Shown piece after piece: positions 14,674-15,026 of a stretch of 64,000 bases of DNA. Every line of letters starts with the position of its first letter. The stretch's first letter is position 1. The position numbers and the translations under genes were made by a program. Origin of the DNA: a virus; the IMG/VR virus record IMGVR_UViG_3300041405_000299, positions 1-64,000 of that record; one strand, written 5' to 3'. A model generated the notes under the pieces. The model was not told the origin of the DNA and ran no database searches. It saw only the letters and a program-made list of their open reading frames with translations.

Positions 14674-14687
14674 AAGAGGAAATACCC

Positions 14688-15026
14688 ATGCTGTAGAACA
14701 AACACTGGATTTACACTTTCGTTCGCAAAGATCTGCTACTCGAGCAGATTCTCGTTCAATCCAACCACGCTTCCCATGAAGCCGCCCTCAAGCACCACTA
14801 TGAGTCAGCTGAACCTTGTTCACTGATTGTCATCGCCGTTAAGAACAAAGCTGCCCTGGAAAAAGCCATGGCTGAGTTCGCTGAGTTCGACCCAACCCCG
14901 TTCTATGAGCCCGACTGGGAGTATGGCCTCACCGCTTTTGCCACCCGTCCGGTCAATGAAGAAGAACGTACTGCATTCCGTAAGCATCAGCTGTTTCGGA
15001 GGTCGCATGTACGCAACCAGTTTTGA
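14688..15026 (+). CDS. PTH2-family peptidyl-tRNA hydrolase-like protein with an in-frame TAG at codon 3
   Basis: SD AAGAGGA 7 nt before ATG-CTG-TAG. A 110-codon open frame follows (WIYTFVRKDLLLEQILVQSNHASHEAAL...LTAFATRP), matching the PTH2 pattern. No ATG/GTG/TTG occurs near its 5' end. Confidence 0.6.

Follow-up and report, generated by a model that had tools for sequence, protein, structure and literature searches.

An early in-frame amber codon in a phage PTH2-like gene, probably read by a linked suppressor tRNA

A gene in the viral DNA examined here (64,000 nucleotides (nt), positions 1 to 64,000 of IMG/VR record IMGVR_UViG_3300041405_000299; this whole stretch is the window below) opens with a start codon, a single sense codon and an amber stop, ATG CTG TAG, and then runs on in the same frame to encode a divergent PTH2-fold protein (14688-15026, plus strand; 112 codons plus TGA). 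Comparison with related phages makes it probable that ATG-CTG-TAG is the true 5' end of this gene, that its translation needs UAG to be decoded by a phage suppressor tRNA, and that the arrangement belongs to a conserved three-part cassette. The cassette would consist of a tRNA with a CUA anticodon (tRNA-CUA), the divergent PTH2-fold protein, and an HD-domain protein that resembles the C-terminal part of CCA-adding enzymes. The start codon, the few sense codons behind it and the stop are called the gate in what follows.

The ATG (14688-14690) lies 7 nt downstream of a Shine-Dalgarno (SD) sequence, AAGAGGA (14674-14680, plus strand), and is followed by CTG (14691-14693), TAG (14694-14696) and an A. 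An earlier note on this DNA had described the SD, its spacing and the in-frame CTG and TAG, and the window sequence bears it out. Past the TAG, 109 sense codons (14697-15023), not 110 as first counted, continue in phase to a TGA (15024-15026). This long open frame was also said to be devoid of start codons: ATG, GTG and TTG are indeed missing from the first 57 codons past the TAG, but an ATG at 14868 forms codon 58, and the list of open reading frames (ORFs) for the window gives only a 52-amino-acid ORF (14868-15026) for the PTH2-like gene. The gated product would read M-L-X-NKHWIYTFVRKDL...RNQF, where X is the residue inserted at UAG. Is such a pattern informative when found once? In mononucleotide shuffles of the 64-kb window, ATG, zero to three codons and TAG stand ahead of 100 or more open codons about 1.1 times per shuffle; thus, the gate pattern alone in one window is not significant, and the case rests on comparison with relatives. 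Conservation among these confirms that the ATG-CTG-TAG observation is real. No other amber-gated gene was found in the 64-kb window.

The early TAG in relatives and the frame behind it

A tblastn search found the PTH2-like protein in 36 phage records, and scans of viral and metagenome contigs added 70 further loci; the comparison set comprises the window and 84 loci (85 stretches, some genomes being represented twice). Whether related phages keep the ATG-CTG-TAG arrangement, a check that the earlier note had proposed, has a clear answer: a start codon, zero to five sense codons and a stop stand in phase with the ORF in 78 of the 85 stretches. These gates come in 32 distinct sequence versions; TAG is the stop of 31 of them and TAA that of the remaining one (L082), and TGA does not occur. 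The base directly after the stop is A in 31 of the 32 versions; work on context effects by Bossi and by Miller and Albertini reportedly showed that suppression is favored by a purine on the 3' side of UAG, above all by A. Most versions have an SD-like GAGG, AGGA or GGAG located 5-9 nt upstream of the start.

The versions include ATG CTG TAG AAC (the window and Arash), ATG TTA TAG ACC, GTG CGT TAG ATG, ATG TAG ATC, ATG TCT CAC TAG ATT (Yersinia phage fHe-Yen9-04), ATG GCA CAA TAG AAT (CBB and GAP32), ATG ACT TAG ATT (Acinetobacter phage ME3) and ATG TTG TAG ATT (Ralstonia phage RsoM2USA). The last sense codon varies (CTG, TTA, CAC, CAA, ACG, TCG, ACT, TTG, AAG, AAC, AAA, CGT and others), and in five loci (L025, L061, L071, L072 and L074) it is wholly absent, leaving ATG TAG. 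The in-frame TAG is kept among phages that share only 30-55% protein identity, and its cultured carriers infect Salmonella, Yersinia, Serratia, Pectobacterium, Cronobacter, Erwinia, Acinetobacter, Ralstonia, Xanthomonas and Stenotrophomonas. Some N-termini in the databases look ordinary: MLQI... and MTQI... are code-15 calls of ATG TTG TAG ATT and ATG ACT TAG ATT, and code-15 gene calls yield full-length products with Q at the TAG (P0002 and P0004). Ordinary starts are found in the sub-clade of RaK2 (L032) and Hallingskeid (L037); L026 has an in-phase TAG and no start nearby, and L078 is a frameshifted contig. Among the GTDB representatives (bacterial and archaeal genomes), no relative of the PTH2-like clade was found. 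In L007 (9737-10000), as in L005 and L008, an upstream ORF of 87 amino acids enters ATG CTG TAG in the same frame; because the gate TAG also stops this ORF, suppression would yield a fusion product there as well.

If the 57 codons directly past the TAG lack a start, are they coding at all? The ratio of non-synonymous to synonymous substitution rates (dN/dS) over these codons is 0.012 between the window and L004 (23 synonymous and 2 non-synonymous changes), 0.094 with L007, 0.118 with Arash and 0.203 with L006; judging by these ratios, the start-less part is under strong purifying selection and is a real coding frame. It also contains VQSNHA, a motif invariant in the family. In GenBank, Arash has a 51-amino-acid "peptidyl-tRNA hydrolase" (gp84c) that covers the C-terminal part only; gp84c is a truncation, since the 57-codon part is under selection and holds the invariant motif. 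The comparison corrects annotation more widely, with the gene missing, truncated or split in many GenBank records: Arash gp85c is an ORF that overlaps in a different frame, CBB_406 lacks part of its N-terminus, the HD gene appears as two entries, CBB_407 and CBB_408, divided at its TAG, and the PTH2-like gene is unannotated in fHe-Yen9-04, BF, the pEa_SNUABM phages and RsoM2USA.

What does the frame encode? The earlier note expected a Pfam search of the translation, given there as 110 residues, to return PF01981 (PTH2). This was not the case: hmmscan of the 109-residue window translation matched no Pfam family at E <= 10. At the level of the family, the identification holds. At E <= 1, PF01981 is matched by 17 of 22 members, with 9.6e-7 as the best value, the XacN1 homologue, at 25.3 bits, exceeds the gathering cut-off of 23, and a family profile retrieves Pth2 chains from the PDB (24bt_A, 4.4e-4; 2zv3_A, 0.018; 1rzw_A, 0.34) when built from the broader alignment A4, alignment A2 having given noise only. 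The window protein itself matches PHROG 34073 (5.6e-19). On these profile matches, it is best described as a member of a divergent PTH2-fold group and a putative enzyme.

The suppressor tRNA and the partner HD gene

The window encodes an amber-suppressor tRNA with anticodon CUA at 16575-16649 on the plus strand (found by ARAGORN; Rfam tRNA, 56.3 bits), about 1.9 kb downstream of the gate. It has the anticodon loop CUCUAAA, a short variable arm and an encoded CCA. ARAGORN finds tRNA-CUA in the fetched flanks of 45 of the 78 gate loci, at distances of 10-4304 nt from the gate and often of less than 500 nt; many of the gate loci that lack it are contigs of 1-5 kb or have short flanks. It was not found in the fetched stretches of L017, RaK2 (L032), Hallingskeid (L037) and L078. 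The relatives' tRNA-CUAs fold as ordinary cloverleaves; their variable arm is short, their anticodon loop is of the CUCUAAA type, and the label "tRNA-Pyl" that ARAGORN attaches to them reflects the CUA anticodon only. In all copies of the window lineage, the lowest pair of the anticodon stem is a C.A mismatch. An initiator-type tRNA that would start translation at the UAG was considered and rejected: the 1-72 end is paired and the anticodon stem lacks a run of three G-C pairs, the SD spacing fits the ATG and not the TAG, and TAGs in the middle of a gene (see below) need an elongator.

The earlier note did not mention the gene next door, although it is part of the same unit. This partner gene encodes an HD-domain protein of 176 amino acids (15007-15537, plus strand; match to phrog_14850, 3.9e-54). 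Its SD, GGAGG (14998-15002, plus strand), falls within the 3' end of the PTH2-like ORF and its ATG at 15007 precedes the PTH2-like TGA (15024-15026) by 17 nt, so that the genes overlap by 20 nt, an arrangement compatible with translational coupling. The partner adjoins the PTH2-like gene in 77 of the 85 stretches, and in some phages the two are fused, in either order: HD precedes PTH2 in XacN1, RAS14 and Xoo-sp13, PTH2 precedes HD in P0154, and P0248 is also fused. In the HD-to-PTH2 fusions, the gate (ATG AAG TAG ACC or ATG AAG AAG TAG AAC) is found at the 5' end of the fused gene; the gate thus belongs to the composite unit, not to one domain.

The partner gene carries in-frame TAGs of its own, in 32 loci and at no fewer than seven sites, and internal TAA or TGA codons were not seen in it. 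Some of these TAGs form early gates (ATG ATA TAG GTA, ATG TTA TAG GTA and ATG TAT GCA TAG ACT); others stand in the middle of the gene, at codon 47 (GGA TAG GGC) in the group of CBB, GAP32, BF and Yen9-04 and at codons around 50-55 (CCG TAG ATT) in others. Homology spans both sides of the mid-gene TAGs; therefore, of the explanations weighed, the only one that fits is that UAG is decoded as an amino acid. Which amino acid might this be? In 40 of 67 sequences, the position of the TAG of L018, L019, L022 and L023 is taken by a W, within the motif W[RK]LPxW; the alignment hints at tryptophan as the inserted residue, without proving it. In L003 (1953-1961), and at the same site in L002 and L009-L016, the partner TAG is preceded by GGA (codons 46-47). 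The take-off site for bypassing in T4 gene 60 has this codon pair too, at a codon number that is almost identical; the likeness is probably a coincidence because homology continues directly past the TAG.

A dependence of the gene's expression on the phage CUA suppressor tRNA, the first of two readings in the earlier note, is thus strongly supported on comparative grounds: by the conservation of TAG and its replacement never by TGA, by the usual linkage to tRNA-CUA, and by the TAGs in the partner gene.

The partner protein gives a clue to what the cassette may act upon. Six residues are invariant in 52 partner sequences (H27, H75, D76, H91, D116 and H120), forming an H...HD...D metal-ligand motif, and PF01966 (HD) is found in some of the relatives; the window protein has no Pfam hit at E <= 1. 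Its AlphaFold model is confident (predicted local distance difference test, pLDDT, of 96.7), and the top Foldseek hits are 3wfo, 3wfp, 3wfq, 3wfr and 3wfs (probability 1.00, query template-modeling (TM) score 0.61-0.66, E about 5e-3), which are entries for the Aquifex aeolicus (A. aeolicus) class-II tRNA nucleotidyltransferase. A sequence profile of the partner matches the 3WFO-3WFS chains too (E = 1.3e-3), over HDxGKP...F.H. Predicted fold and motif therefore place the partner close to the C-terminal region of these CCA-adding or CC-adding class-II enzymes, which it appears to resemble. Unlike them, it stands alone, with 176 amino acids that cover part of enzymes of 425-463 residues (target TM score 0.27-0.29); it has no nucleotidyltransferase head domain, and its activity is putative. 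As members of families that bind the tRNA 3' end or act on it, the PTH2-like and HD proteins both point to that end, where they may have a role.

Between the two-gene unit and the tRNA lie an unassigned ORF of 211 amino acids (15564-16199) and, after it, a gene for a DUF1353 protein (16192-16536; PF07087, 6.3e-28), the PHROG label of which is "tail assembly chaperone". A sigma-70-like match, TTGACA-N17-(TG)TACAGT (16537-16565, plus strand; 10 of 12 positions, with the TG of an extended -10), ends 9 nt upstream of the tRNA-CUA gene; it is a consensus match only. Two further tRNA-like genes in the window, at 4502-4575 and 6925-7000 (Rfam tRNA, 34.4 and 50.2 bits), have 8-nt anticodon loops in which ARAGORN reads the four-base anticodons "agtg" and "caaa", respectively. 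A similarly placed odd tRNA, labeled "???" by ARAGORN, follows tRNA-Gln(UUG) in L004-L006. The genes with 8-nt loops may encode tRNAs that read quadruplets or have degenerated.

Upstream of the gate, the earlier note had drawn a promoter and a structured leader. The sequence TTGATA-N17-TATCAT is present (14499-14527, plus strand; 10 of 12 matches) and may be a promoter of the cassette, but it is not conserved in relatives and such sites are no commoner than in shuffles (two sigma-70-like sites in 14000-16700 versus 1.8 expected). The 146-nt multi-hairpin leader is not supported: it folds no better than shuffled sequence (z = -1.4; 16 of 200 shuffles fold as well), and it is not kept even between relatives with 81-94% protein identity, which have in common only the last 25 nt or so, that is, the SD and ATG CTG TAG. 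A riboswitch or attenuator in the leader was rejected for the same fold score and lack of conservation, and no Rfam family other than tRNA is found in the window. A 13-mer, ATGAATAGCTTTT, occurs twice in exact form (14472-14484 and 14526-14538, 54 nt apart), flanking the promoter-like site; the motif is also found in the otherwise different leader of L004.

Other readings of the gate, and points against suppression

Could the short ORF itself be the functional element? Very short ORFs are prone to peptidyl-tRNA drop-off, as exemplified by the lambda bar minigenes (AUG AUA UAA), and the second reading in the earlier note was that ATG-CTG-TAG is such a minigene: it would provoke drop-off and sense Pth, with suppression being secondary. 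Both systems have a phage SD followed by an ORF of two to three codons and a connection to peptidyl-tRNA hydrolase; essentially all relatives have an ORF of one to six codons with a good SD, and the downstream product is PTH2-related. However, the last sense codon, the determinant of bar toxicity, is variable or absent here. The stop is always in phase with a selected, start-less ORF that continues to a conserved protein, an arrangement for which a stand-alone minigene has no need; it is TAG in 31 of the 32 versions, matching the linked tRNA-CUA, whereas bar uses UAA. Finally, a minigene is no explanation for the partner-gene TAGs at codons 47-55. In view of the variable sense codons, the phase and the mid-gene TAGs, a Pth-sensing minigene fails as an account of the gate, and we consider it improbable.

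Still less probable is expression independent of suppression, in which ATG-X-TAG loads ribosomes that then initiate or re-initiate at a non-canonical codon (for example AUU, AUC or AAC) just past the TAG. AUU and AUC can serve as weak start codons (infC uses AUU), and termination-reinitiation over short distances is known in bacteria; in many lineages, ATT or ATC does stand directly past the TAG. In the window lineage, however, the codon past the TAG is AAC, and the first ATT comes five codons later. Re-initiation does not require an in-phase stop, yet the stop is in phase in 78 stretches; it leaves both the exclusive use of TAG and the linked tRNA-CUA without explanation, and mid-gene TAGs with conserved protein on both sides are not accommodated.

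Three further readings are very unlikely. The gene might be decayed, the TAG being a nonsense mutation behind which at most the 52-amino-acid C-terminal ORF from ATG 14868 is expressed. The 51-amino-acid annotation in Arash, the GenBank records that lack the gene, and the ORF list with its single short entry could all be read in this way, but the 57 N-terminal codons are strongly selected and hold the invariant VQSNHA, and phages that have diverged so far would not have retained a lesion at codons 2-7 in 32 versions.

Alternatively, TAG could be reassigned throughout the genome (code 15, in the style of crAss-like and Lak phages), which would make this just one of many genes with a sense TAG. 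Some pipelines did call the relatives under code 15, and suppressor tRNAs are a hallmark of recoded phages (bioRxiv 10.1101/2021.08.26.457843). The window does not look recoded, and we give this reading hardly any weight: its genes are intact under table 11, the 109 greedy ORFs end in TAA (62), TGA (33) and TAG (14), several long same-strand ORFs among them ending in TAG, and no further start-less ORF past a TAG was found in the 64 kb. The isolates are annotated normally under code 11, and when 18 amber stops of XacN1 were read through in silico, no extension was found (PMC5852040). A few long window ORFs on the locally predominant coding strand (18260-19024, 32655-33494 and 45168-45764) end in TAG; an active suppressor tRNA would lengthen each by less than 70 codons.

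Ribosome hopping or bypassing over the UAG, with a short hop or in the manner of T4 gene 60 and with no suppressor tRNA, can draw on GGA TAG GGC at partner codons 46-48 in giant enterobacterial phages, but it has next to no chance of being right: an in-phase landing codon that matches is missing at the window gate (the sole nearby CTG is out of frame), contexts differ freely among lineages, no untranslated gap exists at the TAG, and the linked tRNA-CUA is simpler.

Decoding by a phage tRNA-CUA has its own difficulties, and the following observations weigh against it or against the functions that might be attached to it. Ten gate loci (L013, L056, L057, L059, L060, L062, L071, L075, L076 and L081) have no tRNA-CUA within 5-10 kb. 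The tRNA may be encoded elsewhere in these genomes, as is reported for XacN1 and RsoM2USA (PMC5852040, PMC8504454). Arash, L005, L007 and L008 have identical copies of tRNA-CUA, from which that of the window departs at two positions: an A-to-T change gives a T.T mismatch in the T stem, and the discriminator A73 is replaced with G. Because of this mismatch and the changed discriminator, the activity of the window tRNA is not assured. Comparison with 275 other phage tRNAs gave generic identities of about 70% only and no indication of the amino acid that the tRNA carries.

In L082 (1290-1310), the gate is ATG TTG TAA ATT and has, in place of the amber, an ochre codon that a CUA anticodon cannot read. 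A tRNA-UUA gene stands directly beside tRNA-CUA in L026 (10322-10499) and another is found in the tRNA cluster of L007 (15138-15216); together with the L082 gate, they raise the possibility that ochre-reading versions of the system exist. In L017 (9960-10010), a well-placed SD is followed by a short ORF, ATG AAA TCC CAA GAA ACA ATC ATC AAC CAG TAG, that is shifted by one base relative to the PTH2-like frame, and no tRNA-CUA lies within 10 kb; the offset could stem from an assembly indel or from decay of the copy, or it could reflect a +1 shift at the TAG.

The remaining objections concern what the proteins do. In HMMER alignments, the Gly-Lys insert of canonical Pth2 is a two-residue gap in the phage family, which has QQ or EQ before VQSNHA where 24bt_A has "tgKK" and 2zv3_A has "kgKM"; mutagenesis of Sulfolobus solfataricus (S. 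solfataricus) Pth2 is said to have shown that the Lys of this Gly-Lys segment, which precedes Q..HA, is catalytic. The AlphaFold model of the PTH2-like protein is poor (mean pLDDT 49.3, from a 27-sequence alignment), and its beta-alpha-beta-alpha-beta order, though compatible with PTH2, is no proof of that fold. Owing to the gap and the poor model, enzymatic activity is uncertain. Lastly, if the two enzymes repair tRNA, a need for functional tRNA in their synthesis would amount to positive, not corrective, feedback.

Known systems and what the cassette may do

That a phage tRNA-CUA decodes in-frame TAG is already known from code-15 recoded phages, in which translation has been proposed to be tRNA-dependent and regulated (bioRxiv 10.1101/2021.08.26.457843; PMC9523058). 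The cassette differs from the crAss-like and Lak phages in its standard code, in TAGs that are found only in a two-gene cassette, usually beside the tRNA, and typically at codons 2-7, and in its hosts, which are Proteobacteria and not Bacteroidota. The prfB gene, which encodes release factor 2 (RF2), is similar in that a gene of the translation-factor type conserves an early in-frame stop, the decoding of which serves as a sensor; by contrast, the zero frame continues in all 78 gate loci, which makes a frameshift unnecessary, the stop is UAG rather than UGA, and the decoder is a suppressor tRNA. Autoregulation as in prfB, with the gene product acting on the decoding of its own stop, is only conjectural for the cassette. 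In selenocysteine and pyrrolysine decoding, a dedicated tRNA likewise reads a stop in few genes while that stop is otherwise kept, but no element like the selenocysteine or pyrrolysine insertion sequences (SECIS, PYLIS), no special synthetase and no special elongation factor were found here, the tRNAs are canonical cloverleaves, and the TAGs occupy poorly conserved positions that imply no special residue.

PTH2 genes of jumbo phages have been proposed to aid in rescuing ribosomes when tRNA has been cleaved (Iyer et al., 2021; PMC7824862). These genes belong to the same broad family and occur in the same context of tRNA and tRNA-repair genes; the main text of that study does not contain the word "suppressor", and PTH2 is not connected to a suppressor tRNA in it (PMC7824862). 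The authors of the XacN1 study could not identify the targets of its two tRNA-CUA genes (PMC5852040), and the role of phage suppressor tRNAs has been called an open question (PMC8386662). A full-text search of the literature found no paper that links a suppressor tRNA to the PTH2-like/HD gene pair. What is new here is the standard-code setting, the confinement to two genes linked to the tRNA, and the near-universal position of the TAG at codons 2-7, not the principle of read-through.

How would the gate operate? Guided by the SD at 14674-14680, the ribosome would initiate at ATG 14688 and read CTG, which would bring UAG into the A site. Release factor 1 (RF1) and charged tRNA-CUA would then compete: the former would release a dipeptide, and the latter would insert an amino acid and allow the PTH2-fold protein to be made. 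Since the zero to five codons ahead of the stop vary, what the short ORF encodes would be immaterial. Translation of the overlapping partner gene may be coupled to read-through at the gate. Why is the TAG placed so early? At this position, the unsuppressed product would be a harmless peptide of one to six residues, and the site would tolerate any residue; that an early TAG has recurred independently in both genes suggests selection for just these two properties.

The only visible targets of the tRNA-CUA are the two neighboring genes, and the arrangement is therefore read as a licensing or reporter device. In the reading that we prefer, the enzymes would be made only when the phage tRNA has been transcribed, matured, kept CCA-intact and charged. 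The gate might serve timing control, a feedback that ties enzyme activity to the condition of the tRNA pool, or both; it might also provide feedback on a potentially harmful deacylating activity, or sense host compatibility. A more specific scheme is tentative, and we lean against it more than toward it: the tRNA-CUA would be a dedicated reporter in a closed loop, in which read-through of the early UAG gauges the supply of mature, CCA-intact, charged tRNA and sets the synthesis of two enzymes that act on tRNA 3' ends, rather than a means of nonsense rescue or genome recoding. Should this scheme hold, the machine could clear blocked, acylated or phosphorylated ends left by host defenses, or tune deacylation, and it would constitute a translational switch of natural origin, orthogonal and portable, that is passed among large phages as a cassette.

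For the orphan suppressor tRNAs of standard-code phages, the cassette supplies a conserved target that is usually adjacent to the tRNA gene. Its gates provide a naturally selected context for amber suppression, with a very early position and an A at +4. The tie between the PTH2-like and HD proteins, seen in their adjacency, in fusions of both orders and in the link to a tRNA, points to an unexplored form of tRNA-end processing or counter-defense. The cassette would be a natural amber-suppression switch in cultivable phages, one that is directly testable with existing isolates and their hosts.

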